Source of the DNA: Candidatus Marinacidobacterales bacterium
GTDB lineage: Bacteria; Acidobacteriota; Vicinamibacteria; Marinacidobacterales; SMYC01
DNA: 64,000 nucleotides
Direction: 5' to 3'
Assembly: GCA_965237955.1 (NCBI GenBank)
Contig: OZ250169.1
Coordinates: 2,240,001 to 2,304,000, forward strand
In this document: piece by piece, positions 35,005 through 47,412 of the stretch
Layout: each line of letters begins with the position of its first letter
How positions within the stretch are numbered: position 1 is the first letter of the stretch
Translations under genes and position numbers: made by a program
The notes under the pieces: generated by a model
What the model saw: only the letters and a program-made list of their open reading frames with translations
Told to the model about the DNA's origin: nothing
The model's database searches: none

Positions 35005-38000
35005 TTAGACCGACAGACGATTACGGGTGAACGCCTCACTAAGAGAGGTGTCCACGACGCATTCATAGTCCTCGAGACGGGCCACGAGACCGCCGTCGCT
35101 GTCGAGGAACTCCATGTCAGCCCGAGCCCAGGAGTTTCCGCTCTCGCTGATCTTTACGACGACAGAGACTCCGTCGCCAGGAAATGAGTCTCTGAACTGA
35201 CGATAGCGCCCGGCAAAGGTCGGCAACGAGGCGGCTCCGTGAATCTCCCGGCTCCAGACAATCATCAGTTGGAAGGCGACGTCTAGCGCCAGAGGATCGG
35301 CGAGCCACGCGCTTCTGAGTGGCTCGGCGAGCCAACGGGAGGGAGGAACCGTCGGGCCGGTGCGGGCGGTGATGGCGTCGTCGGAGATACCTTCCACCTC
35401 TTGGATACCCTGCAGAGCGGGCCCCTGGAAGAGCAAGTCACGATAGATCTCGTCGCTCGGCCGGTGGTAGGGATGAGTGTTGGTGTTTAGCCGGGCGCCG
35501 GAAGCCGCGGGCAGCTTGGACGCCAGGTGAATCGTCGCTCGGGCATGGTGGTGCTCCTTGCCCTCGGCGCCGGTGCTGCGAATCTCCACGGGAACACTGA
35601 GGAAGCCGAAGCCGAGGCCGTTCGTCTTTATGGCCTTGCCGGTGAGGACCTGGGTGGCGCGGGTTTCGCCGGCATCCAGGGTAAGTCCCTTGAGCACTCT
35701 GAGGTCGTCGAATCCATGGAAGCGGAGGCCGGGATTCTTGTGCACGGCGCCATGGGCCATCCACTCGACGATGAGAGCCAGGGGAACGACGGCCCGGCCA
35801 TTCAATACGTGATCCTTCAGTATCGGCACTTGCTTCACACCGATCTCTCTCTCGAAGGCCACACTCAAGCTCGCACCCTTTTCCGGCGGCGCGAGCATCA
35901 CGACCTCTACGGCGTCCCGGCTGCCATGGCGAATCTCGTCCACCAGCGCCCGGCTTCCTTCTTGAAGACCGATGAGCCCCACGCCCTCGTCATGGAACAC
36001 CTTGGCCAGGGCCGGAGTGACCATGCCACCGTCCCAGGGACCCCAACCCACGGAAACCACCCGGGCGGAAGGAATCCTCGCGGCCAGCCGCCACGCGGTC
36101 TTGTTGAGCACCTCGTTGGCCACGGCATAGTCCACCTGGCCTTTGCGACCGAAGCGTGCCGTGGACGACGAGAAGAAAACCACGACCTTGAGGGCTTCGA
36201 CGTCCAAAGCGGACAGGAGGGCGGTCATGCCGGCAACCTTCGTCCCGAAGACCCGGGAAAACTGCTCCTCAGTCTTGTTCTCGATGAGCTGATCCGCGAG
36301 CACGCCGGCCCCGTGTACGAGACCGGTGATGGGTCCGAGCTTCGTGCGAACGTCAGCAAGGATGTCCTCAACCGCCGCACCGTCGCGAACATCCACCGCG
36401 CGGTACTCCACATGCCCGGCCGTCCGTGCCACATCGTCAAGAGTCTGCCGAATCTCGCGATTCACCATGAGGCGTCGGTACTCTTCACCCACGTGGCGGG
36501 GCGAGGCACCGGCACCTGCCCGAGTTGCGATCTCTTTCTTGATGGCCGCTTCGGCGGTAAGGCCATGAAGCCATGCGGGCTCGGCCGTGGGCTCTGGACT
36601 TCTCCCAAGAAGCACGAGCTTCGATCCAAAAGCCCGGGCCAGCTCCCGGGCGGCCGCCGCTGTCACACCTCTGGCTCCGCCTGATATCACAATGACATCG
36701 TCCCTGCCGAGCTCGAACGACGATTCACCGGGAACGATGGCGCGGGGCGAGAGCTCCAGAGTGACCCGGCCCGTGTGGGTGAGACCCACTTCGAGCGGCC
36801 CGTCGAAGAAAATCTCATCCACGATGCCGGCGGCGAGCGAGGCCGCGTCATGGACCCCCGACGTAACATCCATGGCCTTGCAGTGCACCTCGGGCCACTC
36901 GTGGCTTGCCGTCTTGGCGAGACCGGCCAGTCCGCCGCTTTGACACCGCGTCTCGGGGCCCGTGCCCTTCAATCCGAAGGAGCCGTCTAGACGGGACACG
37001 GTGACGAAGACCGAGCCTCGCGAGCGGCCGCTCCGGCGCAGTGCAGAGCTCACCCGACTCAGGAGCGTCAGCGAGTCGGCCAGGAACTGGTCGCTGTCGG
37101 GACTCGCCGGGCCGACCACGACGAGGCCACCTAGCTCCGACGGTGGCTCCAGGGATGCTGCGTCTTCCAGCGCGACGAGACGGGGCTTTAGACCCAGTGC
37201 CTCCATGCGATCGGCGACCTCGGCCGAGAGGCCGGAGTCGTCACGGGAGATCAGAACGACGGCGTCAGAGGCCAGAGAGAACTTCTTGCGCTCCGCCGCC
37301 TCGTCCAGGACTGTGACAGCGAGGACACTTCTCTCTGGCGCCTTGGCTCGAGACACACTAGCCCGCCGCACGAGCTCGTCTACATCCACACCCTCGGCCG
37401 GAATCGATGAAGGCGTGATGCGGGCTTCTACGGCATCCGACAGCGTGTCCACCACGTTGCGCACCGTCCGCCAGGAGTTGATGATGCCTTGGGCGATCTC
37501 GGGCATGGAGGGTGTCTTGTCCCTAAGGAAGGAGAAGATCTCCGCGCGCTTGACCTGATCGATGCCCAGATCCGAACTGAGATCCATGTTCATGTGGAGG
37601 GAGTCCACCGGAAATCCCGTCTTGGCCGAAACCGCCGCCAAAACGCTCGAGCTGATTCTGAGGTCAACGGTGGAAACCGACGCCGGCGTGCCACCGTTCG
37701 TGTCACTCTCAGTGTCAGTGTCAGCAGCAGTCTCCGCTGCTTCAATGGGGGCCGGCGATGGAGCGGCCGCGCCGTCTTCTGTGAGGAAGGCCACGACCTG
37801 TCCAAGAGTACGCAGGGTGCCGAGGTGCTCGGGGCCCACGGACGGCGCCTCGGGAATGCGTTGCTGCAACGCCGAGAGAATTTCCACGCGCTTGATGGAG
37901 TCGATGCCCAAGTCCGAGTCCATCTCCATGTCCAGGTTCAAGATGTCGACTGGGTATCCGGTCTTCTCGGCGACCACCTCGAGGAGAACCGCCTCCACCT

Positions 38001-41000
38001 TGCCGGCATCGATTTTGGAAGGCTTGCTGGTTTCCCCGGGAGAAGTGGCTCTCGGCGTCTCGGCCGGCGGAGGCGTCTCGGCGAGAGTGGGTGCCATCGC
38101 CGGAGCCGCAACCTGTACCGGCGGCGGCACGGGCACGGGAACGGGTTGGGCTCGAGGCAGGGGTGACGGTGCCAGGCCCAGCCGTTGCTCGACGAGGCGT
38201 TGCTTGTGATCGACCAAGGATTGAAGCGTGCGCTGGGCCGACTCCTGGCCCTGAAGGAACTGCCGATGGAGGGCGGCGGTTTGCTCCTGCATCTTTTGAA
38301 GCGCGGCCATGTTCTCCTGTGTCATCCGTAGCGCGTCATCAATTACGGCGTGCCCAGCGCTGCCCGGAGCGGATGGCTGTCGCGGGACGGCGGCAGCGTT
38401 CTCTTTGGGGGGCTCGGGGGTTTTGGCGGGTTCGGGTGGTTGACGACTCATGGTGGTTCGCCTTGGGGCCGGCGCCTCCTGCCTCTTTTTTGGTTTGACA
38501 TAGTTGGCGCCGCTAAGGGTCACAGTGAGAGCCGGCTTGGAACGCTCGTCCGCAAACGCCAAGGATGACGCCTCGGGGTCCCACTGATTTAAATCGACGC
38601 GGAAGCCGTAGGCAGAAACGCGGGCCAGAGCCCGGGCGAGGTCGACGGCTCCGGAGCGCTTGCCCGACGATGCATCGAGGGCATGCGCCACATGTTCTTC
38701 GCCCTCGAGAATCGACCGCACCAAGCCGGTGAGCCGGCTCCCCGGGCCGACCTCGAGAAAGAAGCGGGCGCCGTCTCGGTGCAGGTTTTTGATCTCATTG
38801 ACGAACTCCACCGGCCGGACGAGCTGATCGGCGAGCAGCGCGGCAATGCCGGAAGCCTCATCGGGATACGTTTCGCCGGTGGCGTTGGCGTAAACCTTGC
38901 GCCGGGGCGCCGCGATGTCGGCCCGGCCGAGCTCGGTAGCAAAGGGCTCCGCGGCATCGACCACGAGAGTGCTGTGAAACGCCGCGGAGACTGGAAGACG
39001 CTTGCATCTAACACCGCGCCTCTTGAAGGCCTTCACCGCTTTTTGGATCTCGTCGGTAGGACCGGACAGAACGAACTGGGCCGGAGCATTCTTGTTGGCC
39101 ACCACCAGGGCGAGTGAATCCTCGACGACGATGGATTCGATGGTGCTCTCATCGGACTCCACCGCCAGCATGGCGCCGCGGTCGCCGTTGCCCTCGCTCA
39201 TGAGCCGCCCGCGGAGCATGGAAAGGACGCTCAGGGTCTGGGCGTCGAACACCTCCGCCGCTTGCAAAGCCACCAGCTCGCCGTAGCTGTGACCCGCCAC
39301 GGCGGCAGGCTCGAGACCGAACCTCTGGAGCACGCCCAGGGCGCCCACCGAGACGGCGCCGATGGCTGGCTGGGCCACCTCTGTGGCGCGCAGCGCTCGT
39401 TCTTGAGCCTCTTTCGTCTCATCGTCGAAAGCCGGGTGCGGATAGATGACATCGCTGAGCCGGTTGCCGGCCCTGTCCAGCCTGTTCATCCTGTCCAGGC
39501 TGTCCAGTAGCTCGGGGAACTGACAGGCCAGATCCCTGAGCATTCCCACGCACTGAGAGCCCTGGCCCGGGAACAGGAAGGCTAGAGATCCTACCGGCGC
39601 TCCGGTGCCGTAAAAGGCCCCGTCCGGTGTAGTCCACGAAGTCTTGTCGGTATGGGTCTTCAAGAGTGTGAGGCCACCCTCGAGACACTTTCTGAGTTGG
39701 GTTGGCTCCGTGGCCAGGATCAGCCGGTGCGCGGCCTCATGACGGAACGAGCTTCGGGCCCGGGCGGCCAGGCCTCGCAGGGCTCGTATATCAATGCCCT
39801 TCCGATCGGACGGAAAGGCCTGAGCGACGCTTACGAGCTCCTCTCGAGTATCGGCCGAAAATGCCAGGAGCACGGTTTCGCCGTCGAAGTCCGGAGCGGC
39901 CTTGGCCGCTTCCGCTTCTTCGAGAACGCAGTGGAAGTTGCTCCCGCCAAAACCGAAGGCGCTCACCGCGGCCCGCCTCGGATGATCTGCGGAGGAAAGC
40001 CAGGGCTTCTTCGTGGTGTTGACGTAAAAGGGTGAGCCCCCATTCCTGAGCACATCCAGCGGCTCGGTGACTTTCAAAGTCGGGGGAAGAACCTTGTGTT
40101 TCAGCGCCAGGGCGGCCTTCATCACGCCGGCGATTCCGGCGGCAGCCTTGGTGTGTCCCAGCTGCGATTTGACGCTGCCCAGCGCACACCATCCTCCGTC
40201 GGCATCGGCTTCTCGGAACACCGCGGAAAGGGATTCGACCTCGGTGGCGTCTCCCACCTTCGTGCCCGTGGCATGGGCCTCGATGAGCTCGATGCTCCGG
40301 GCCGAGATCCCGGCGCCGGCGTAGGCGTCTCTGAGAGCCTTGGCCTGGCCGCTGGCTACCGGCGCGTACACCGCCGTGCCCTTGCCGTCGCTGGACGAGC
40401 CTATTGATCGGATCACAGCGTGGATGGTGTCTTGGTCTTTGCGAGCATCGGCCAGCCGCTTGAGCACCACGACGCCGAGGCCCTCACCGAGAATCGTGCC
40501 GTCCGCTGACTTGTCGAAAGGACGGCAATCGCCGGTAGGCGAGAGCGCCGGCGTCTTGCTGAAGCACATGTACATAAAAATGTCGTTGAAGGTGTCCATG
40601 CCTCCGGCAAGCACCATGTCAGAGCGTCCGGAGGCGAGCTCCAGGCCGGCAAGGTGAAGGGCGCCCAGTGAGCTGGCACAGGCCGCGTCCACCACGCAGT
40701 TGGTGCCACCGAGGTCGAGCCGGTTGGCGATGCGCCCGGCCACGACATTGCCCAAGAGTCCCGGAAAGGAGTTTTCCTGCCACTCCACATAGTTGTCGGA
40801 AATCTTCTGGACCACCGTGTCGGTAAGGTCGTCGGCGACACCGGATTCCTTCAGCGCCCGCCGCCACAGGGGGTGTCCCAAGCGGGCCCCCAGAGGAATC
40901 ACCAGCTCCAGCGTGCCCGTGACACCGAGAATCACGCTGGTCCGATCCCGATCGAAGCTTCCCTTCTCCCCATAGCCCGCATCTTCCAGAGCTTGGCTCG

Positions 41001-41319
41001 CCACCATGAGTCCGAGCAGCTGGGTCGTGTCCGTGGCCTCTATGTCGTTGGGCGCGATGCCGAAGGCAAGGGGGTCGAAGGCGACCGGTGACAGAAATCC
41101 ACCGCGACGGGCATAGGTGCGATCCGGTGCCTTGGGATCGTCGTCGAAGAAGTCCTCCACGTTCCAGTGGGTGGAAGGAATGTCGGTTATGGTGTCGACA
41201 CCGTTTTTGAGATTGGCCCAATAAGCCCCCACGTCATCGGCCTTGGGGAAGAGACAGGCCATGCCGACGATGGCCAGGGGCTCTTGTTGCATCCGAGTGT
41301 TACTGGACTTAGTGGACAC
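35005..41319 (-). CDS. pfaA: PUFA-synthase-like PfaA: KS-MAT-ACP-ACP*-KR-DH
   Basis: DAACASS, HATGT, GHTKAAAG; GHSYG; ACP DLGIDSIK; degenerate ACP DLGIDQVK; KR GGARGVT; DH DHVLNGRAVVP; GTG 41319 with GGAGG RBS. Confidence 0.92.
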   Translation of the reverse strand: MSTKSSNTRMQQEPLAIVGMACLFPKADDVGAYWANLKNGVDTITDIPSTHWNVEDFFDDDPKAPDRTYARRGGFLSPVAFDPLAFGIAPNDIEATDTTQLLGLMVASQALEDAGYGEKGSFDRDRTSVILGVTGTLELVIPLGARLGHPLWRRALKESGVADDLTDTVVQKISDNYVEWQENSFPGLLGNVVAGRIANRLDLGGTNCVVDAACASSLGALHLAGLELASGRSDMVLAGGMDTFNDIFMYMCFSKTPALSPTGDCRPFDKSADGTILGEGLGVVVLKRLADARKDQDTIHAVIRSIGSSSDGKGTAVYAPVASGQAKALRDAYAGAGISARSIELIEAHATGTKVGDATEVESLSAVFREADADGGWCALGSVKSQLGHTKAAAGIAGVMKAALALKHKVLPPTLKVTEPLDVLRNGGSPFYVNTTKKPWLSSADHPRRAAVSAFGFGGSNFHCVLEEAEAAKAAPDFDGETVLLAFSADTREELVSVAQAFPSDRKGIDIRALRGLAARARSSFRHEAAHRLILATEPTQLRKCLEGGLTLLKTHTDKTSWTTPDGAFYGTGAPVGSLAFLFPGQGSQCVGMLRDLACQFPELLDSLDRMNRLDRAGNRLSDVIYPHPAFDDETKEAQERALRATEVAQPAIGAVSVGALGVLQRFGLEPAAVAGHSYGELVALQAAEVFDAQTLSVLSMLRGRLMSEGNGDRGAMLAVESDESTIESIVVEDSLALVVANKNAPAQFVLSGPTDEIQKAVKAFKRRGVRCKRLPVSAAFHSTLVVDAAEPFATELGRADIAAPRRKVYANATGETYPDEASGIAALLADQLVRPVEFVNEIKNLHRDGARFFLEVGPGSRLTGLVRSILEGEEHVAHALDASSGKRSGAVDLARALARVSAYGFRVDLNQWDPEASSLAFADERSKPALTVTLSGANYVKPKKRQEAPAPRRTTMSRQPPEPAKTPEPPKENAAAVPRQPSAPGSAGHAVIDDALRMTQENMAALQKMQEQTAALHRQFLQGQESAQRTLQSLVDHKQRLVEQRLGLAPSPLPRAQPVPVPVPPPVQVAAPAMAPTLAETPPPAETPRATSPGETSKPSKIDAGKVEAVLLEVVAEKTGYPVDILNLDMEMDSDLGIDSIKRVEILSALQQRIPEAPSVGPEHLGTLRTLGQVVAFLTEDGAAAPSPAPIEAAETAADTDTESDTNGGTPASVSTVDLRISSSVLAAVSAKTGFPVDSLHMNMDLSSDLGIDQVKRAEIFSFLRDKTPSMPEIAQGIINSWRTVRNVVDTLSDAVEARITPSSIPAEGVDVDELVRRASVSRAKAPERSVLAVTVLDEAAERKKFSLASDAVVLISRDDSGLSAEVADRMEALGLKPRLVALEDAASLEPPSELGGLVVVGPASPDSDQFLADSLTLLSRVSSALRRSGRSRGSVFVTVSRLDGSFGLKGTGPETRCQSGGLAGLAKTASHEWPEVHCKAMDVTSGVHDAASLAAGIVDEIFFDGPLEVGLTHTGRVTLELSPRAIVPGESSFELGRDDVIVISGGARGVTAAAARELARAFGSKLVLLGRSPEPTAEPAWLHGLTAEAAIKKEIATRAGAGASPRHVGEEYRRLMVNREIRQTLDDVARTAGHVEYRAVDVRDGAAVEDILADVRTKLGPITGLVHGAGVLADQLIENKTEEQFSRVFGTKVAGMTALLSALDVEALKVVVFFSSSTARFGRKGQVDYAVANEVLNKTAWRLAARIPSARVVSVGWGPWDGGMVTPALAKVFHDEGVGLIGLQEGSRALVDEIRHGSRDAVEVVMLAPPEKGASLSVAFEREIGVKQVPILKDHVLNGRAVVPLALIVEWMAHGAVHKNPGLRFHGFDDLRVLKGLTLDAGETRATQVLTGKAIKTNGLGFGFLSVPVEIRSTGAEGKEHHHARATIHLASKLPAASGARLNTNTHPYHRPSDEIYRDLLFQGPALQGIQEVEGISDDAITARTGPTVPPSRWLAEPLRSAWLADPLALDVAFQLMIVWSREIHGAASLPTFAGRYRQFRDSFPGDGVSVVVKISESGNSWARADMEFLDSDGGLVARLEDYECVVDTSLSEAFTRNRLSV

Positions 41320-43057
41320 GTAGTTCCTCCACGGGCCGCAGCCGGTACTCGCTCCACGAGCGCAGTGGTTGGACGCCCTGGCTGCGAAGGGCATTGATAC
41401 GGGTCAGCAAGGAGGCGCCGTGCAAGATGTTCAACGCAACGGTGACGACACGGCGGTGTTCCGGCTCCTCCAGGAACGATCCCTTTACCCATCCATTGAA
41501 TGCCCCCATCGAGGGCCCGCACCAGATCTGGTAGTCGATGGTCCGGGAGGGATCGCCGGCATTGGCCCAGTTCGACGACTGGCCGAGATACCAGCGGAAG
41601 ACCAAGGCCATCTTGTGTTTGGGATCCTTCGCGGCTCGCTCGAGCTGGGCCGGATCCCTCTCAGCGAAGAAGTCGCGGCATTGGCTCCACACCGCGTTCA
41701 CCGGTGCTCGGAAGTAATTTTTTTCCAGCGCCGCCATATCGGTCTCGGGAATGGACTCCAGACTTTCACACGCCCGGTAAAGTTCGTAGAGCTTCTGGGC
41801 TCGCATGGCGAAGAAGGTGCCGCGCTTGAGCACCTGTACCTTCACACCCATCTCGAACATGTCGGCCGCTGGCGCCATGGCGACGTCGGCCTGCTCGGCG
41901 GCGGCGAGCATCGTGCGCACGGTCTGAGACGTACCCGCCTCGACGCAGGACTGGTTGACCGAGCCAGTGAGTATGTAGGCGGCCCCCATGGAAAGGGCCG
42001 CAGCGGCTGAAATCGGAGTGGAGATGCCTCCGGCGGCTCCCACCCGCAGGGTCTCACTGTAACCATGACGTTCCTGCATCTGATCCCGGAGCGCCATCAG
42101 CGCAGGTATGAGGGCCAGGGCCGGCTGGTTGTCGGTGTGACCGCCGGAGTCGGCCTCGGCGGTGATGTCCTGGGCCATGGGAATGCGGGCGGCCAGACGG
42201 GCCTGCTCCTCGGTGATGTTTCCTGTGTCGACGAGAGGCTTCAACAGACGCTCCGGTGGTGGGGAAAAAAACTTCGTGGCGACTTCTATGCGAGACACCT
42301 TGGCGATGAGCCGGTTCGGCGTCACGATGCGTCCCTGGGAATCTTCGTGAATCCCGTGGACGCGGTAGCGGACCACAGGAAGAGTGAGATCCAGATAGGC
42401 CGAGGCCGAGGCCAGGTGCACGCCGCGCTGAATGTAGAGCTCGACCACGGCGGACTCCAGACCGGGCTCGTTGGGGCTGTGGATGAGGTTGAAGCCGTAC
42501 GGCCGTCCCTCCAGAGAATGAGACAGGCGGTCGATGGCGGCTTCCACCGCCTCGAGAGGCAGGCCGGCAGCGCCGAAGAAGCCAAGCATGCCGGCGCGGC
42601 CCATGGCCTCCACGATTTCGGCCGAGCCGATCCCATTGGCCATGGCACCGGCGATGTAGGGATAGCGCAAGCCATGGTCTAAGAGGAATCCCGGGTCACC
42701 AAGGTGCTCGGGAGGGCTGGCCGGGGAGTAGCCGATTATGGGAAACGCTTCACCCTCGGTGACACCAGCTCCTAGAATCGCAGTGCCGCCGGTCACTCGG
42801 GCGCACGCGCCCCGATCCGAGATCAGGATCACGGGTCGTCCGGTATCCTGCACGGCCTCCCTGATGGCGTCTGGCCGGCGGTCCACACGGGAGGCGGGGC
42901 CCGTCCACCAGCCCAAAGGAGCCATGGACTTTGCCGAGGTATCGCTATCGCTCGAGCGATCCGGCTCCGAAACGAGCGCGTGAGCGCGATGCTCGTGGAT
43001 CGGCGCGTATCGCTGGTTCTTTGAGGCCACTCCGGTTCTCGCGCGTTCGCTGGTCAC
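41309..43057 (-). CDS. pfaD: PfaD-family enoyl reductase
   Basis: YIAGAMANGI, AEADSGGHTD, GAAGGI, APAADMFEMG, QIWCGPSMGAFN; start codon uncertain. Confidence 0.95.
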   Translation of the reverse strand: MTSERARTGVASKNQRYAPIHEHRAHALVSEPDRSSDSDTSAKSMAPLGWWTGPASRVDRRPDAIREAVQDTGRPVILISDRGACARVTGGTAILGAGVTEGEAFPIIGYSPASPPEHLGDPGFLLDHGLRYPYIAGAMANGIGSAEIVEAMGRAGMLGFFGAAGLPLEAVEAAIDRLSHSLEGRPYGFNLIHSPNEPGLESAVVELYIQRGVHLASASAYLDLTLPVVRYRVHGIHEDSQGRIVTPNRLIAKVSRIEVATKFFSPPPERLLKPLVDTGNITEEQARLAARIPMAQDITAEADSGGHTDNQPALALIPALMALRDQMQERHGYSETLRVGAAGGISTPISAAAALSMGAAYILTGSVNQSCVEAGTSQTVRTMLAAAEQADVAMAPAADMFEMGVKVQVLKRGTFFAMRAQKLYELYRACESLESIPETDMAALEKNYFRAPVNAVWSQCRDFFAERDPAQLERAAKDPKHKMALVFRWYLGQSSNWANAGDPSRTIDYQIWCGPSMGAFNGWVKGSFLEEPEHRRVVTVALNILHGASLLTRINALRSQGVQPLRSWSEYRLRPVEELRVH

Positions 43058-43762: not shown

Positions 43763-43839
43763 TGGCGCGCCCTAGGCGATTCGAACACCTGACCTACAGA
43801 TTCGTAGTCTGTCGCTCTATCCAGCTGAGCTAAGGGCGC
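43763..43839 (-). tRNA. tRNA-Arg(ACG)
   Basis: GCGCCCT/AGGGCGC acceptor, anticodon arm ACAGA-CTACGAA-TCTGT, GTTCGAA T-loop, encoded CCA. Confidence 0.97.
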
Positions 43840-43920: not shown

Positions 43921-44664
43921 TTGCCCAAACTTTGCGAGGGTGTTGCCGCCTTCACATCGCATGTGCGCGAAGCGTGCCCAATATATTGCCGGAACGTACA
44001 AAAACTATGCGCGGCATGTTCGTTTCGATCGATCTTTGGTTTCGCTGCCCTGTGGTTCGCCGTCTCGGCACACTCGAGCTCCGGCGAAGATCTGTTCTCG
44101 GGCTTCGAGAATGGATGGAGAAAGTCGTGGATGGAGCGGGCGATGGCGCGCCGCTCCAATACGTTTCGATTGGAAAGCGAGAAAGAGAATCGTTTTCTTC
44201 GGATCGACAGCCAGAACTCAGCCTCGGCGCTCTGGCGTCAAGTCGATCTCGATGTGACACAGGATACCGTCGTCTCGTGGCGATGGAGAGTCTCGAACAG
44301 TCTCGGTCACATCAAAGACGAAAGGCGGCTGGGGAGCGACGACTATGCTGCGAGAGTCGTGGTCATGTTCGACGGCAAGCCGTTCGGTCGCAACACGCCG
44401 TTTCTGATATACGTGTGGGCCGGGAATGAAGCCGTCGGGAACATCTACCCGAGCCCCTACACCGAGAAAGCGGTTACGATCGTTCTCCGTAGCGGAAACC
44501 TTGATAGCGGGGAATGGCTTATGGAAGAACGCGATGTGTCGGCCGACTTCGAGCGTTACTTCGGTCGTCCCGCGGAGCGCATTACTGGCGTCGCGCTCAT
44601 GGTGGACACGGACAACACCGACTCGCAAGCAACCGCCTGGTTCGACGACCTCATCGTTCACTGA
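43921..44664 (+). CDS. DUF3047-like protein
   Basis: WRWRV, DDYAARV, LIYVW, ADF..YFG, MVDTDNT..A.AWFDD; start codon uncertain. Confidence 0.8.
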   Translation: MPKLCEGVAAFTSHVREACPIYCRNVQKLCAACSFRSIFGFAALWFAVSAHSSSGEDLFSGFENGWRKSWMERAMARRSNTFRLESEKENRFLRIDSQNSASALWRQVDLDVTQDTVVSWRWRVSNSLGHIKDERRLGSDDYAARVVVMFDGKPFGRNTPFLIYVWAGNEAVGNIYPSPYTEKAVTIVLRSGNLDSGEWLMEERDVSADFERYFGRPAERITGVALMVDTDNTDSQATAWFDDLIVH

Positions 44665-45560
44665 ATCCTATGAGTTCAGATATCGACTTCGGGCTTCGTC
44701 ATCCCTTCCGCGAGATAAGCGTGCGCCATGCACGGGGTGTTGAACGCGAAACCGAGCTCGCCCTTCGAATCGACGACGATGATGCCGCCGCGACCGTGGG
44801 TGCGTGATTTGAGCACCCGAATAGCTTGTTGAGCCGCCTCACTCGGCCCGATGCCGGAGGTTAAGGACTCGACGGCGCGATGTGCCATCACGACGCGTAT
44901 GATGCCTTCGCCCCAACCCGTCGACGACGCAGCGCCTCGCCGATCGTCGGCGTAGAGCCCGGAGCCAACAAGCGGCGAATCGCCGACACGGCCCGGAAGC
45001 TTGAGGAGTGCTCCGCCCGTCGACGTCGCGGCGGCGACATGCCCGTCGCCATCACAAGCGAGCGCTCCGACGGTGTCGGCGGGAGAGGCGAGCCCACCCA
45101 GCCCATCCATTTCGTCGAGAGCTCCCGGCTTCTTGAAGCGTTTCGCTTTCTCGAAGCGCTTACGCTCACGGTCTTCGATGAGAGACTCCGGTGCACACGT
45201 CGCGATACCGGACTCGCGCGCCAGCTCGAGAGCACCGTCCCCCACCACCATGAGATGACGCGAGCTCTCCATGACCGCGCGCGCGAGCGCTACCGCATGG
45301 AGCACACCCGAAACACACGCGACCGAGCCCGCTTCCAAGTCTTCGCCGTTCATAATCGCGGCATCGAACTGCACTTCGCCGCGTGCGTTCAAAACCGCCC
45401 CTCGGCCCGCGTTGAACGTCGGATCCGCCTCCATGTGCTCGACCGCTCTTTGCACGGCGTCGACCGCCGAGCCGCAACTAAGCATCGTACGCGCAGGGCT
45501 CGCGATCTGTCTGGGTAGAAACTCCAGTGCTGCACGGAGCGTCCGTTTCATACAATAGCG

Positions 45561-45718
45561 GGAGCATCCGGGAACCGAGGCCGACTCAACACTGGTGCGA
45601 TCCAGCCCGTAACTAAGCATGGCCCGGGGATGTTTCGGCACTGTCAGTGGTGACACGCGTGAGCGTGATCCCGTTTAGGAGAATGTAACGAATGCCCATC
45701 CCTGTTCCCGGATGCTTC
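45561..45718 (+). ncRNA. Putative bridge/seek RNA of the IS110
   Basis: Closing stem GGAGCATCCGGGAAC/GTTCCCGGATGCTTC; TACAAT -10 box at 45551-56; loops carry junction copies CCGTAACTAAGCAT and TTAGGAGAATG; strand inferred. Confidence 0.75.
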
Positions 45719-45740
45719 ACGAAGTATGAAGGAGCATCTG

Positions 45741-47129
45741 ATGAAGCACAATCGTCGTCAACCCAAGAAGCGGACTTCTCCATCCCTGCTGAAGCAAATC
45801 AACGTGAATGTCGCTGGGATCGATTGCGGCTCGGCCGAGCATTTCGTCGCAGTTCCACCGGAGCGCGATCCTAAACCGATCCGTTCCTTCAGGAGTTTCA
45901 CGGCCGATCTTCATCGGCTCGCCGACTGGCTCGCGACTTGCGGCGTGACGAGCGTCGCGATGGAGTCGACCGGCGTCTACTGGATCGCCCTGTATGAAAT
46001 CCTCGAAGCCCGTGGCTTCCAGGTCCTCTTGGTCAACGCGCGCCACGTCAAAAACGTCCCGGGGCGCAAGAGCGATGTCAGCGATTGCGAATGGCTCCGG
46101 GAGTTGCACAGCGTGGGGTTGCTCCGCGGAAGCTTTCGACCCGAAGCAGCCATCACCGCCCTTCGTGGCTACCTCCGCCACCGAGAGACTCTCGTTCAGA
46201 GTGCGGTAACCCATATCCAGCGCATGCAGAAGGCTCTCGTGCAAATGAATCTTCAACTCCACCTTGTGGTCACTGATATCACGGGTGTCACTGGCATGCG
46301 GATTCTACGAGACATCGTTGCCGGACAAACCGACCCCCATCGGCTCGCTAAGCACCGTGACCACCGTTGTCAGTCCTCCGAGGCCGAGATCGCCGCTGCA
46401 CTCACCGGCAACTATCGCCCCGAGCACCTCTTCGCTCTCAAGCAGAACCTCGAACTCTTTGATGCTTTTCAGCTCCAGATCCAAACCTGTGACGTGGCCA
46501 TCGAATCGCACCTGCAGCTTCTAGCTCAACGCTCAACCCCGAACACCTCCTTGCCACCGCCTCGAAAATCGCGCAAGCCCCGAGTGAACGAACCTCGGTT
46601 CGAGCTCCGGCCTCTCCTCCACCAGATCGCCGGGGTCGACCTCTCCCAGATCGACGCCATCGGACCCTATTCCGCGCTTCGCTTGCTCGCCGAGATCGGT
46701 ACCGATATGAACCGATGGCCTACTGAAAAGCACTTCACTTCCTGGCTTACCCTCGCGCCCAATAACAAAATCTCCGGCGGGCGACTCCTCAGCTCGAAAA
46801 CACAACCCTCTGCAAACCGGGCCGCTGGCATTCTCCGCATGGCCGCACTCAGCCTCGGGCGTACACAGACCGCTCTCGGCGCCTACTATCGACGTCTCGC
46901 CTATCGCGTCGGTAAATCCAAAGCCATCACCGCCACCGCTCGAAAGCTCGCCATTCTCGTCTACCGCACTCTCAAGGATGGGCTCGTCTATCAAGACCCC
47001 GGGGCCGCCGCCTACAACGCTCAAGATCGCTCCCGTGCCGTGCGCCGCCTGACCCAACGCGCCGCTGACCTCGGTTTCGCTCTCATCGACACTCAAACGG
47101 GCGACGTCGTTCAGGCGGTAGTTTCTTAG
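45741..47129 (+). CDS. IS110 DEDD recombinase/transposase
   Basis: GIDCG, MESTGVYW, KSDVSD, C-terminal Ser motif NKISGG; RBS AAGGAG 45729-34. Confidence 0.95.
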   Translation: MKHNRRQPKKRTSPSLLKQINVNVAGIDCGSAEHFVAVPPERDPKPIRSFRSFTADLHRLADWLATCGVTSVAMESTGVYWIALYEILEARGFQVLLVNARHVKNVPGRKSDVSDCEWLRELHSVGLLRGSFRPEAAITALRGYLRHRETLVQSAVTHIQRMQKALVQMNLQLHLVVTDITGVTGMRILRDIVAGQTDPHRLAKHRDHRCQSSEAEIAAALTGNYRPEHLFALKQNLELFDAFQLQIQTCDVAIESHLQLLAQRSTPNTSLPPPRKSRKPRVNEPRFELRPLLHQIAGVDLSQIDAIGPYSALRLLAEIGTDMNRWPTEKHFTSWLTLAPNNKISGGRLLSSKTQPSANRAAGILRMAALSLGRTQTALGAYYRRLAYRVGKSKAITATARKLAILVYRTLKDGLVYQDPGAAAYNAQDRSRAVRRLTQRAADLGFALIDTQTGDVVQAVVS

Positions 47130-47297
47130 GAGAATGGTCTCGAACCCGATCATCGACGCCCGGTGGACTCCTTTGAGGTGGTCTTCAAGCTCACCTTCGG
47201 GTGTCGCCCACGCCCCGCCGTGGACGAGGATTGCGGGGCGAGCCTGGCGTGTCGCGGGCTTGTCCATCATATGGTTTCCTCCGCACCCGATCGCTAC

Positions 47298-47336: not shown

Positions 47337-47412
47337 TGGTAGCGCTACGGGGATTCGAACCCCGGTTTGATGGCTGAGAACCACCCGTCCTAGTCCCCTA
47401 GACGATAGCGCC
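47337..47412 (-). tRNA. tRNA-Glu(CTC)
   Basis: GGCGCTA/TAGCGCT acceptor, anticodon arm GGTGG-TTCTCAG-CCATC, GTTCGAA, CCA; TTGACA upstream at 47471-47466. Confidence 0.95.

Follow-up and report, generated by a model that had tools for sequence, protein, structure and literature searches.

Among the described RNA-guided IS110 systems, IS621 and ISCro4 (PMC11208160; PMC11208158; PMC13626964; PDB 8wt6, 9t56) combine a DEDD + Ser catalytic set, a 5′ RNA with a target loop and then a donor loop, a 2-nt core, and a 2-nt handshake after the 3′ guide, and each IS621 loop pairs with the top and the bottom strand. The element described here has the same catalytic set and core length, its AG core being CT on the other strand, and its predicted RNA has the same order of loops and a candidate 2-nt handshake behind the 3′ guide of the target loop. 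It differs in that its site is inverted relative to the element, its recombinase has 462 aa rather than 328, its guides are 5 nt long, and its donor guides both match one strand, one of them displaced by ~27 nt. The IS1111-group seekRNAs ISEc11, ISKpn4 and ISPa11 (PMC11187229) share with it the order of pairing, a top-strand match 5′ of a bottom-strand match, and this group also has sub-terminal inverted repeats. In contrast to the IS1111 group, the RNA here lies upstream of the gene and no long non-coding region follows it (the recombinase gene ends within the right end, and ~260 nt lies upstream), the protein is longer than 330-350 aa, and the 7-bp repeat sits 34-35 nt in from the left end, on the far side of a hairpin, instead of a few bases from both ends.

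The element is a multi-copy, ISPpu9-like IS110 with an AG core. ISPpu9 / MITEPpu9 of Pseudomonas putida KT2440 (PMC12288879; PMC8450116) have this core in common with it, and a 43-nt left box with an inner palindrome and a short right box were found here as well. By our reading of Table S2, the 43-nt left box of ISPpu9 holds an inner palindrome and an end CAAACA that is the inverse of TGTTTG 5 nt before the right AG, which is the geometry seen here. ISPpu9 also has an internal promoter, like the one predicted here, and a published ISPpu9 primer reads CCCG-C-GTAGG-A, in which the loop motif leads into the left target GTAGG-AG. The recombinase resembles the ISPpu9 tree row in PMC11208160 Supplementary Table 1 in a comparison made by eye. 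The ISPpu9 target differs from that of the element, at which no ssr9-like module was seen. In the accessible text of the ISPpu9 papers (PMC12288879; PMC8450116), guides are not mapped, the group is described as lacking end repeats, and a folded donor is not put forward.

The structural papers and two recent preprints disagree on whether the moving form of an IS110 element is single- or double-stranded. Excision of a single strand has been reported for IS621 and CazIS110-1, and CazIS110-1 also integrates single-strand donors; in these copy-out accounts one strand is excised, rejoined and inserted, as is proposed here, and their accessible text describes no folded donor end (10.64898/2026.08.31.748434; 10.1101/2025.10.25.684509). 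The stem-loop gate of ISPpu10 (10.64898/2026.03.19.712850) likewise involves DNA secondary structure in recognition, but that hairpin is in the target, beside the guided site, whereas the fold considered here is in the donor.

The window, a stretch of 64,000 nucleotides of contig OZ250169.1 from a Candidatus Marinacidobacterales bacterium, had been annotated from its letters as holding an IS110 element within an asparaginase gene, which was borne out (PF01112). The initial annotation singled out two non-coding segments, 45607-20 (segment 1) and 45675-85 (segment 2), as matches to the left and right junctions. The features at this locus are as follows:

44676-45480, minus strand: 3′ part of the interrupted host asparaginase gene (PF01112, E 3e-80; orthologs in 20/20 relatives searched)
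45476-45480, plus strand: left target 5-mer AACTA of the host, with an invariant C before it at 45475 (11/11 left junctions; empty paralogs)
45481-45482, plus strand: AG core, left copy (junctions, orthologs, empty sites)
45483-45489, plus strand: first 7 nt of the left end, of which the predicted handshake reads nucleotides 1 and 2; in the predicted fold this is the unpaired side of the bubble
45490-45504, no strand assigned: inner DNA hairpin of the left end, with CGCG arms at 45490-93 and 45501-04
45507-45513, plus strand: displaced donor site, CTGTC and then the TG pseudo-core side, to which the fourth guide is a same-sense match
45517-45523, plus strand: AGAAACT, inverted repeat of the right end (47120-26), closing the 43-nt left-end box 45481-45523
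45551-45556, plus strand: -10-like box TACAAT, predicted internal promoter
45558-45722, plus strand: predicted bridge RNA, a closing stem and two twin loops (covariation; no Rfam family)
45585-45590, plus strand: 5′ side of the target loop, predicted right-target guide (complement of the top strand) and core-G partner
45611-45619, plus strand: 3′ side of the target loop, left-target guide AACTA, AG and handshake CA (functional part of segment 1)
45641-45647, plus strand: 5′ side of the donor loop, fourth guide CTGTCAG, same-sense to 45507-13
45675-45683, plus strand: 3′ side of the donor loop, with the right-end guide TTAGG and AG and a possible AA handshake behind them (segment 2)
45741-47129, plus strand: IS110 recombinase of 462 aa, or 467 with the ATG at 45726 as start (PF01548, PF02371, NF033542)
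47120-47132, plus strand: right end, AGTTTC, TTAGG and AG core (17/17 right junctions)
47133-47270, minus strand: 5′ part of the interrupted asparaginase gene, 46 codons (ortholog comparison)

The recombinase carries the PF01548 RuvC-like domain (E 7e-23) and PF02371 (E 8e-12), and scores 253 bits against NF033542 (cut-off 140). Residues D28, E75, D112 and D115 (DEDD) and S345-G346 align with the IS621 motifs. Profile searches hit IS621 8wt6 and ISCro4 9t56, and a single-sequence search gave no hit to IS621 (328 aa) at E 0.01. The predicted model has a pLDDT of 86.6; relative to IS621 there are two insertions, at about 170-300 and 420-462. No relatives of the element were found in viral contigs.

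The junctions fix the core. In this genome the 17 right junctions without exception finish ..TTAGGAG (one of the 17 has 3 extra bases), and 11 of 11 left junctions read CAACTAAG followed directly by CAT. The CT(a/t)AG core of the initial annotation is not borne out; rather, three comparisons give AG. Four empty paralogous sites read ..CAACTA-AG-flank, so that insertion is precise at the short core without other duplication. Among nine asparaginase loci examined, the spacing from HGGA to SAVDA is 39 residues in 8/8 matched orthologs, which fits an AG core, whereas the CT(a/t)AG reading gives 40. Finally, a contig spanning the empty site in asparaginase shows 10 letters, the number expected from AG, whereas CT would require 13. 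With AG as the core, 7 of the 11 bases of segment 2 belong to the element and not to the host. A divergent empty allele had raised the suspicion that flank bases are carried in by the element, an idea which was dropped because the four empty paralogs already carry the target letters.

Homologs were gathered as 158 stretches, of which 134 were parsed and 24 were not. In these 134, the 5′ RNA has two twin loops, each of the pattern NNNNN-C-A-N-UGGUG...CCCG-N-NNNNN-AG, although the parsers require CCC[GA], A[AG] and GTTT[CT], so that these letters and the core agreement of 123/123 are partly by construction; more than one left core was a candidate in 19/119. The consensus structure pairs 95% of cells, with 15/28 pairs compensated and 0/500 shuffles as good. 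An Rfam scan gave no family over the element. A -10-like box stands on the sense strand just upstream of the RNA in 62/76 homologs (6.3 in shuffles), and a sigma-70 scan for a full site gave 0 sites. These data point to a 5′ RNA that folds into a target loop and a donor loop, as in IS621. The initial view that the 5′ non-coding region is a (predicted) guide RNA with a non-IS621 layout is supported. The letters on which that view was built were confirmed, namely the 13/14 match of 45607-20 to 45472-85, the identity of 45675-85 with 47126-36, TAGAAACT at 45516-23, TACAAT at 45551-56 and a closing stem (45562-75/45704-17); the loop stems CTGG/CCAG and CGTT/AACG are absent from the consensus. An antisense RNA is not needed, because the -10-like box is on the sense strand and sense pairing gives the canonical target geometry 3′ of the core.

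Covariation links the target guides to the left and the right flank on opposite strands, in the IS1111-like order, which is reversed relative to the element in comparison with the IS621 type. The left-target guide matches its flank at 4.36/5 positions versus 2.13 (z 21.9, n=98) and the right-target guide at 2.74/5 versus 1.81 (z 11.4, n=107), although at the 17 sites of this element's own family the latter matches only 1.1/5. Covariation with the donor is also seen at the two handshake nucleotides (z 8.4 and 6.6, n=75). Thus, the run of segment 1 from target into donor sequence, which the initial annotation took as a sign of a new architecture, is real and is the known handshake (handshake guides are described in PMC11208158). 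In segment 1, the letters CCG belong to a stem of the RNA that does not vary in 48/48 aligned RNAs; at the equivalent position, only 7/98 homologous targets have them. The letters AATG behind the core form a near-conserved motif of the RNA (ATTG 51, AATG 47, AGTG 18 of 134) that equals the right flank in only 3/109 unique sites. The U-G wobble suggested for the mismatch fails, as 11/49 genomic C-AACTAAG sites are occupied against 0/58 with another base in place of C, among them 0/18 with the perfectly pairing T. Similarly, the target is not 16-18 nt long but C-AACTA-AG with a poorly matched right side; the long target was discarded with 8 different right-flank 5-mers among 17 junctions. As an internal control on how the target is read, the guide follows the duplex flank at 24 discordant positions versus 5. 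Folded, attC-like targets were considered and rejected (inverted arm at 16/81 sites against 8.8 in shuffles, maximum 16; duplex flank favoured 24 to 5).

The two segments are therefore not both target guides: one is in the target loop and the other in the donor loop, where host bases had been claimed for segment 2 and mostly the element's own right end is found. This 3′ donor guide equals the right end in 118/123, with a weak possible handshake (z 2.6 and 4.0). The same-sense match in separate domains had been noticed, and the unusual feature missed is a displaced fourth guide on the same strand. IS621-type donor pairing on opposite strands directly beside the core was not found in the homologs, and a guide complementary to the donor beside the core gave no signal (best z 2.6 over 10 shifts). 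Instead, the 5′ side of the donor loop matches, same-sense, a site 24-30 nt inside the left end, between the covarying hairpin and the 7-bp repeat of the right end. The match is 4.10/6 versus 2.58 (z 15.2, n=93 unique pairs), with no other register of the 18 above z 4.3. With one element per cluster at 90/80/75/70% protein identity, z falls to 13.0/6.8/4.8/3.2, and at 70% a neighbouring register is as good (3.1 vs 3.2). In 64 non-overlapping sister pairs, full compensation is seen for 11/40 RNA columns that changed, and for 0-3 when any of five other registers is taken; the left-target guide is tighter (30/50). A held-out set (22/40 stretches parsed, 18 unique; five parsed rows come from one genome, and about five visibly mis-parsed rows were kept) gave z 5.0, and no other register reached p<0.05. 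With unrelated letters, the guide matches at 6/6 both in paralog family B, at 49% identity, and in another family at 44%, and in the nearest relative, L084, guide and displaced site have changed together. In the copies of this genome, position 45509 is A in 10/11, which would make a G.T wobble, and G in the asparaginase copy. In six AA-core proteobacterial plasmid elements the match is 0-3/6 in register, and four of the six reach 4-5/6 only after a 1-nt shift. A rival partner, RNA-RNA pairing included, was not found in seven other regions; the top hits of that search were the guide itself and the neighbouring stem. For ISPpu9, the fourth guide is predicted as GCTGT-C. Both donor guides are same-sense, and therefore both would pair with the bottom strand. 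Wobble asymmetry, taken as a strand test, did not single out the bottom strand (30 vs 22).

The left end itself appears able to fold. The arms of the inner hairpin covary at offsets 7/13 (offsets found in 49/90), with 304/414 cells paired versus 225 when shuffled and 55-131 when slid, and a position beside the inner stem avoids pairing (1/69 vs 6.4). AGAAACT (45517-23), earlier set against a proposed circle joint, is instead the inverted repeat of the right end (47120-26); it is paired in the predicted fold of 87/90 modelled joints and lies 5+2 nt from both core and pseudo-core. The bottom strand is thus able to form a stem, a bubble of 13-14 nt and a second stem, a mimic of the double-stranded site. 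Folding of the top strand is at least as good, the bottom strand being the lower of the two in 35/90.

Taken together, the covariation suggests that a predicted four-guide bridge RNA would read the target as a duplex and, probably, the element's own joined ends on one folded strand. The recombinase would cut and rejoin only the bottom strand (CT at the core, the equivalent of the IS621 'top' strand), and this exchange would copy out a single-stranded circle. In the circle, AGTTTCT would pair with AGAAACT and the inner hairpin would form, leaving a mismatched bubble of 13/14 nt, about the size of the region that IS621 opens. The donor loop would then pair with both sides of this pre-formed bubble, so that neither second-strand synthesis nor melting would be needed. 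The target loop would open the duplex C-AACTA-AG site, its C probably read by the protein, and a single strand exchange favoured by the 2-nt handshake would insert the strand, to be resolved by replication. In integrons, the inserted single strand of a cassette is resolved by replication, and the DNA fold of attC is read by a tyrosine recombinase without RNA. The predicted folded donor fits single-strand copy-out. Two reports count against it: mutating the inner palindrome of the ISPpu9 A box did not stop minicircle formation, circles being the one outcome scored (PMC12288879), and at one junction CazIS110-1 did about 20-fold better with a double-stranded donor.

Alternatively, the same fold and pairings may arise as a cruciform from a supercoiled double-stranded circle, or be made by the recombinase, the intermediate not being single-stranded. 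The near-equal folding of both strands would suit this, as would the preference of CazIS110-1 for duplex donor and the detection of ISPpu9 circles by PCR, which does not reveal strandedness. We consider it unlikely, since a stem of 7 bp next to a mismatched bubble of 13/14 nt is weak (-7.1 kcal/mol in this element) and would be a poor competitor of perfect duplex. It is also decidedly unlikely that there is no fold and that the displaced site is an inverted duplex half-site, at which the donor loop of a second RNP, forming a half-match or DBL-DBL complex, anchors excision; IS621 is reported to form half-match and donor-only complexes, and ISPpu9 circles need the A box but can dispense with its inner palindrome, but the covarying hairpin at offsets 7/13 and the 5+2 nt spacing of the end repeat from core and pseudo-core are left unexplained. 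That the fourth-guide match is a functionless relic of a short duplication or of repeated left-end/RNA copying, with protein alone reading the left donor end, is very improbable: the match is imperfect, weak in one subclade and drawn from relatives that are not independent, but sister pairs show compensated changes, lineages at 44-49% identity match with unrelated letters, and the guide's loop position is the twin of that of the right-target guide. The initial model, in which the core is CT(a/t)AG, both same-sense segments guide to the target (or the RNA is antisense) and the target spans 16-18 nt, has next to no chance of being right, because, although its two literal matches exist and ISPpu9 is described as making an antisense RNA over the equivalent region, the core is AG by empty sites, segment 2 follows the element's own end, CCG and AATG are conserved RNA letters, and right flanks vary among junctions.

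If the folded-strand donor holds, a large, phylum-spanning clade of long IS110 recombinases would, on balance, have single-strand transposition hard-wired into its ends, the RNA reading a folded, pre-opened strand, and a single-stranded oligo or circle would be its programmable donor, an RNA-guided counterpart of the integron cassette. A clade with an RNA able to pair both donor halves only on one folded strand offers a sharp test of strandedness. It would also explain the unmapped ISPpu9 guides, as published covariation pipelines, so far as described, took about 25 nt on each side of the core and the displaced site would lie at +24 to +30. A bridge recombinase of this kind would accept single-stranded cargo, and ordinary duplex DNA could not stand in for its donor, a point of relevance to off-target half-match events. 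Four metatranscriptome runs yielded 16 contigs, two of which extend over the left end and into the RNA, covering its 5′ half, in data that do not distinguish strand, ends or DNA carry-over; one of these two runs in from the host flank. Eight runs of contigs contained no circle joint, and natural head-to-tail joints are present in homologs L003, L060 and L107. A literature search covering openly readable text found no paper that describes the displaced same-strand layout of donor guides.

The asparaginase gene, which lies on the opposite strand, is split by an IS110 element (window ~45481-47132, forward strand). Its recombinase of 462 aa matches the domains PF01548 and PF02371 as well as NF033542, and has the same DEDD and serine residues as IS621. 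The AlphaFold model of this protein, built on 55 sequences (1 of them out of frame), is a confident prediction (pLDDT 86.6). The element belongs to the IS110 family and would act like a bridge recombinase. The genome holds 10 full-length copies (at least 98.5%), 1 split copy and fragments, which offer 11 left and 17 right junctions. The neighbouring features in the window are:

35005-43057, reverse strand: polyketide-synthase-like frame of 2129 aa with a neighbour of 582 aa, presumably PUFA-synthase pfaA/pfaD genes, judged from motifs
43763-43839, reverse strand: tRNA-Arg(ACG)
43921-44664: DUF3047 protein, from a domain match
47337-47412, reverse strand: tRNA-Glu(CTC), a short distance 5' of the asparaginase gene

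The left junctions read CAACTAAG followed by CAT in 11/11 copies, and all 17 right junctions end in AGTTTC-TTAGG-AG before 8 different 5-mers. The CT(a/t)AG core of the initial annotation is contradicted by three observations. At four paralogous sites that are empty and share 96-100% of their letters with the filled flanks, the sequence is CAACTA-AG-flank; the HGGA-to-SAVDA spacing is 39 residues in 8/8 pattern-matched orthologs (9 loci examined), which fits an AG core, whereas the former core would give 40; and the empty asparaginase site has, in contigs from two DNA runs, the 10 letters that AG needs. With AG as the core, TTAGG belongs to the element. A C precedes the target 5-mer in 11/11 insertions, and 11/49 sites with this C are filled versus 0/58 with another base. 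The RNA has U at that position, so that the C is probably read by the protein rather than through the U-G wobble proposed earlier.

Some sites show further variation. The empty asparaginase allele (sequencing runs X1 and X5) differs in 7/10 letters around the site (window 45476-45482 / 47133-47135) on a contig about 98-99% alike elsewhere, and probably represents a sister lineage. The bases directly after the right core at G000:C1:1171193 (coordinates of the element's genome) differ between run X16 and the genome, and the junction at G000:C1:2895072 has three extra bases; right joints may sometimes be imprecise.

Homologs were gathered from 77 genome and 80 metagenome loci, and no relatives were found in viral contigs; 134/158 stretches, the window included, could be parsed. 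An alignment of 48 RNAs gave a closing stem and two twin domains, with 95% of cells paired and 15/28 pairs compensated, a figure equalled in 0/500 shuffles. Each domain consists, in order, of 5 variable bases, C-A-N, UGGUG, a hairpin, CCCG-N, 5 variable bases and the core. A -10-like box lies 5' of the RNA in 62/76 representatives versus 6.3 in shuffles, and no Rfam model matches the predicted RNA.

Three guides occupy the expected places. Left cores were placed independently of the guide, through their distance from the inner repeat (AGAAACT, 45517-23). On this basis domain 1 (the target loop) equals the left target on its 3' side at 4.36/5 versus 2.13 shuffled (z 21.9, n=98), and its 5' side is complementary to the right target at 2.74 versus 1.81 (z 11.4, n=107). 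Directly 3' of the domain-1 core, two bases covary with positions 1 and 2 of the element (z 8.4 and 6.6, n=75) and are followed by an invariant U; this pair corresponds to the handshake described for IS621 (PMC11208158). The 3' side of domain 2 (the donor loop) equals the right end in 118/123, through the variants TTAGG, TTGGG, TTGAG, TTAAG and TCAGG, and in one genome's family both RNA and DNA switch to an AA core. Both junction repeats reported initially are present in the sequence. The first (45607-20) comprises a target guide, core and handshake, but its CCG is invariant RNA stem found in only 7/98 targets. The second (45675-85), taken for another target guide, is the donor guide with core, and its AATG equals the flank in 3/109 sites. 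The guide order, with the top-strand match first, agrees with IS1111 seekRNAs (PMC11187229) and would correspond to IS621 geometry with the site reversed, where AG reads as CT on the opposite strand. The right-target guide of this element's family predicts TTGAG and matches its own 17 sites at only 1.1/5; hence this family seems to insert mainly through the left half, which speaks against the long target once suggested.

The fourth guide (domain 2, 5' side, 45641-47) departs from expectation. The complement of the DNA just inside the left core reached at best z 2.6 over 10 shifts. Instead, this guide equals, in the same sense, a stretch ending 6 nt before GAAAC (4.10/6 versus 2.58, z 15.2; n=93 unique pairs, 35 distinct hexamers), the best of 17 other registers giving z 4.3. 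With one element per cluster at 90/80/75/70% identity, z was 13.0/6.8/4.8/3.2 (n=76/34/16/10), and at 70% the next register scores equally well. Among 64 non-overlapping sister pairs, 11/40 changed columns were fully compensated, as compared to 0-3 in five other registers and 30/50 for the left-target guide. A held-out test covered 40 stretches at 37-70% identity: 13 from plasmids, 25 from genomes and 2 for paralog families. Of these 22 parsed, 18 of them unique, and z was 5.0, with mis-parsed rows kept and 5 parsed rows from one genome. All 6 positions match in two distant families whose letters are unrelated, and the match is weak among the AA-core plasmid elements of proteobacteria. In the window, guide and site (45507-11) both read CTGTC, the other 10 copies having CTATC at the site; an 85% relative (L084) has CTATC in both. 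These comparisons strongly support a putative displaced, same-strand donor guide.

Owing to the same-sense match, the bottom strand would be the pairing partner of the two donor guides. At the inner repeat this strand reads AGTTTC, 5 bases, a 2-base pseudo-core (its G conserved in 80/93) and the guided bases, an inverted version of the spacing at a genuine site. When joints were modelled, the end repeat was paired in 87/90 predicted folds and its flanking position covaries (64 versus 40.9); in 49/90, an inner hairpin lies at offsets of 7 nt from the core and 13 nt from the repeat. Its arms pair in 304/414 cells versus 225 shuffled and 55-131 slid, and the base beside its stem avoids pairing. 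The predicted fold is a stem, a 13/14-nt bubble and a stem, in which the guided stretches would face each other like opened duplex strands. Targets are unlike the donor, the right-target guide tracking the duplex flank 24 to 5. In IS621, the equivalent of the folding strand is cut first (PMC11208158), and single-strand excision is reported for IS621 and CazIS110-1 in the preprints 10.64898/2026.08.31.748434 and 10.1101/2025.10.25.684509. The guide strand, the stems, this strand equivalence and the reported excision favour a donor that would be a folded single-stranded circle pairing with both donor guides; one strand exchange could then insert it, followed by replicative resolution. Such a single-strand mechanism is plausible; a cruciform would fit the sequence as well, the top strand folding as well as the bottom. 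Against the fold stands an inner-palindrome mutant of ISPpu9 that still formed circles (PMC12288879).

The core, the loop motif, the end repeat and a left box of 43 nt are also present in ISPpu9, and by eye the recombinase resembles the row for the ISPpu9 cluster in a table of PMC11208160. The element lacks the donor-loop feature of IS621, in which the loop pairs with opposite strands on either side of the core, and two features of the IS1111 group, a long non-coding region 3' of the gene and inverted repeats close to both ends. No folded donor is mentioned in the text passages covered of the IS110 literature, including 10.64898/2026.08.14.744561, 10.64898/2026.10.21.760802 and PMC13604230.

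The target used most often, likely the end of another IS, is a repeated sequence lying shortly after a transposase-like frame; this frame weakly matches Mutator/IS256 (PF00872, E 0.06, below cut-off). The repeat is empty at G000:C1:313557 and 3680244 and has filled left junctions at 541034, 2886910, 2893425, 3067234 and 3883671; the full AGTTTC precedes the 5-mer in 4/5 filled copies. A second target (G000:C1:3182441/3177785, 1093035) coincides with the end of a different repeated element. Perfect pairing is seen between TGTTG, the right flank of this target, and CAACA-CU at window 45587-93, a position shifted by two bases from the register of the family; this could reflect chance or slippage of the register. 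Left-target guides end in GTT in 36/76 representatives (e.g. L094, L100, L106, L109), whose flanks resemble integron attC sites. In an AA-core proteobacterial subgroup (L158-L166), the insertions lie in A-runs within transposase-like frames, presumably IS3-type frameshift sites, with guides TAAAA/CAAAA/AAAAA.

The RNA layout of the element recurs, with different guides, in two paralog families at 46-49% identity (G000:C1:4255252-4256911 and six more, 4904923, 4910170-4911175). Sites of family B are often donor-end-like (TAGTTTC before the 5-mer) and include insertion at a related element's right end; these would be natural half-matches or tandem events. The RNA model also weakly matches (E 0.003) G000:C1:4677596-4677768 on the reverse strand, away from known copies; this locus might represent an additional family or a derivative that has no gene.
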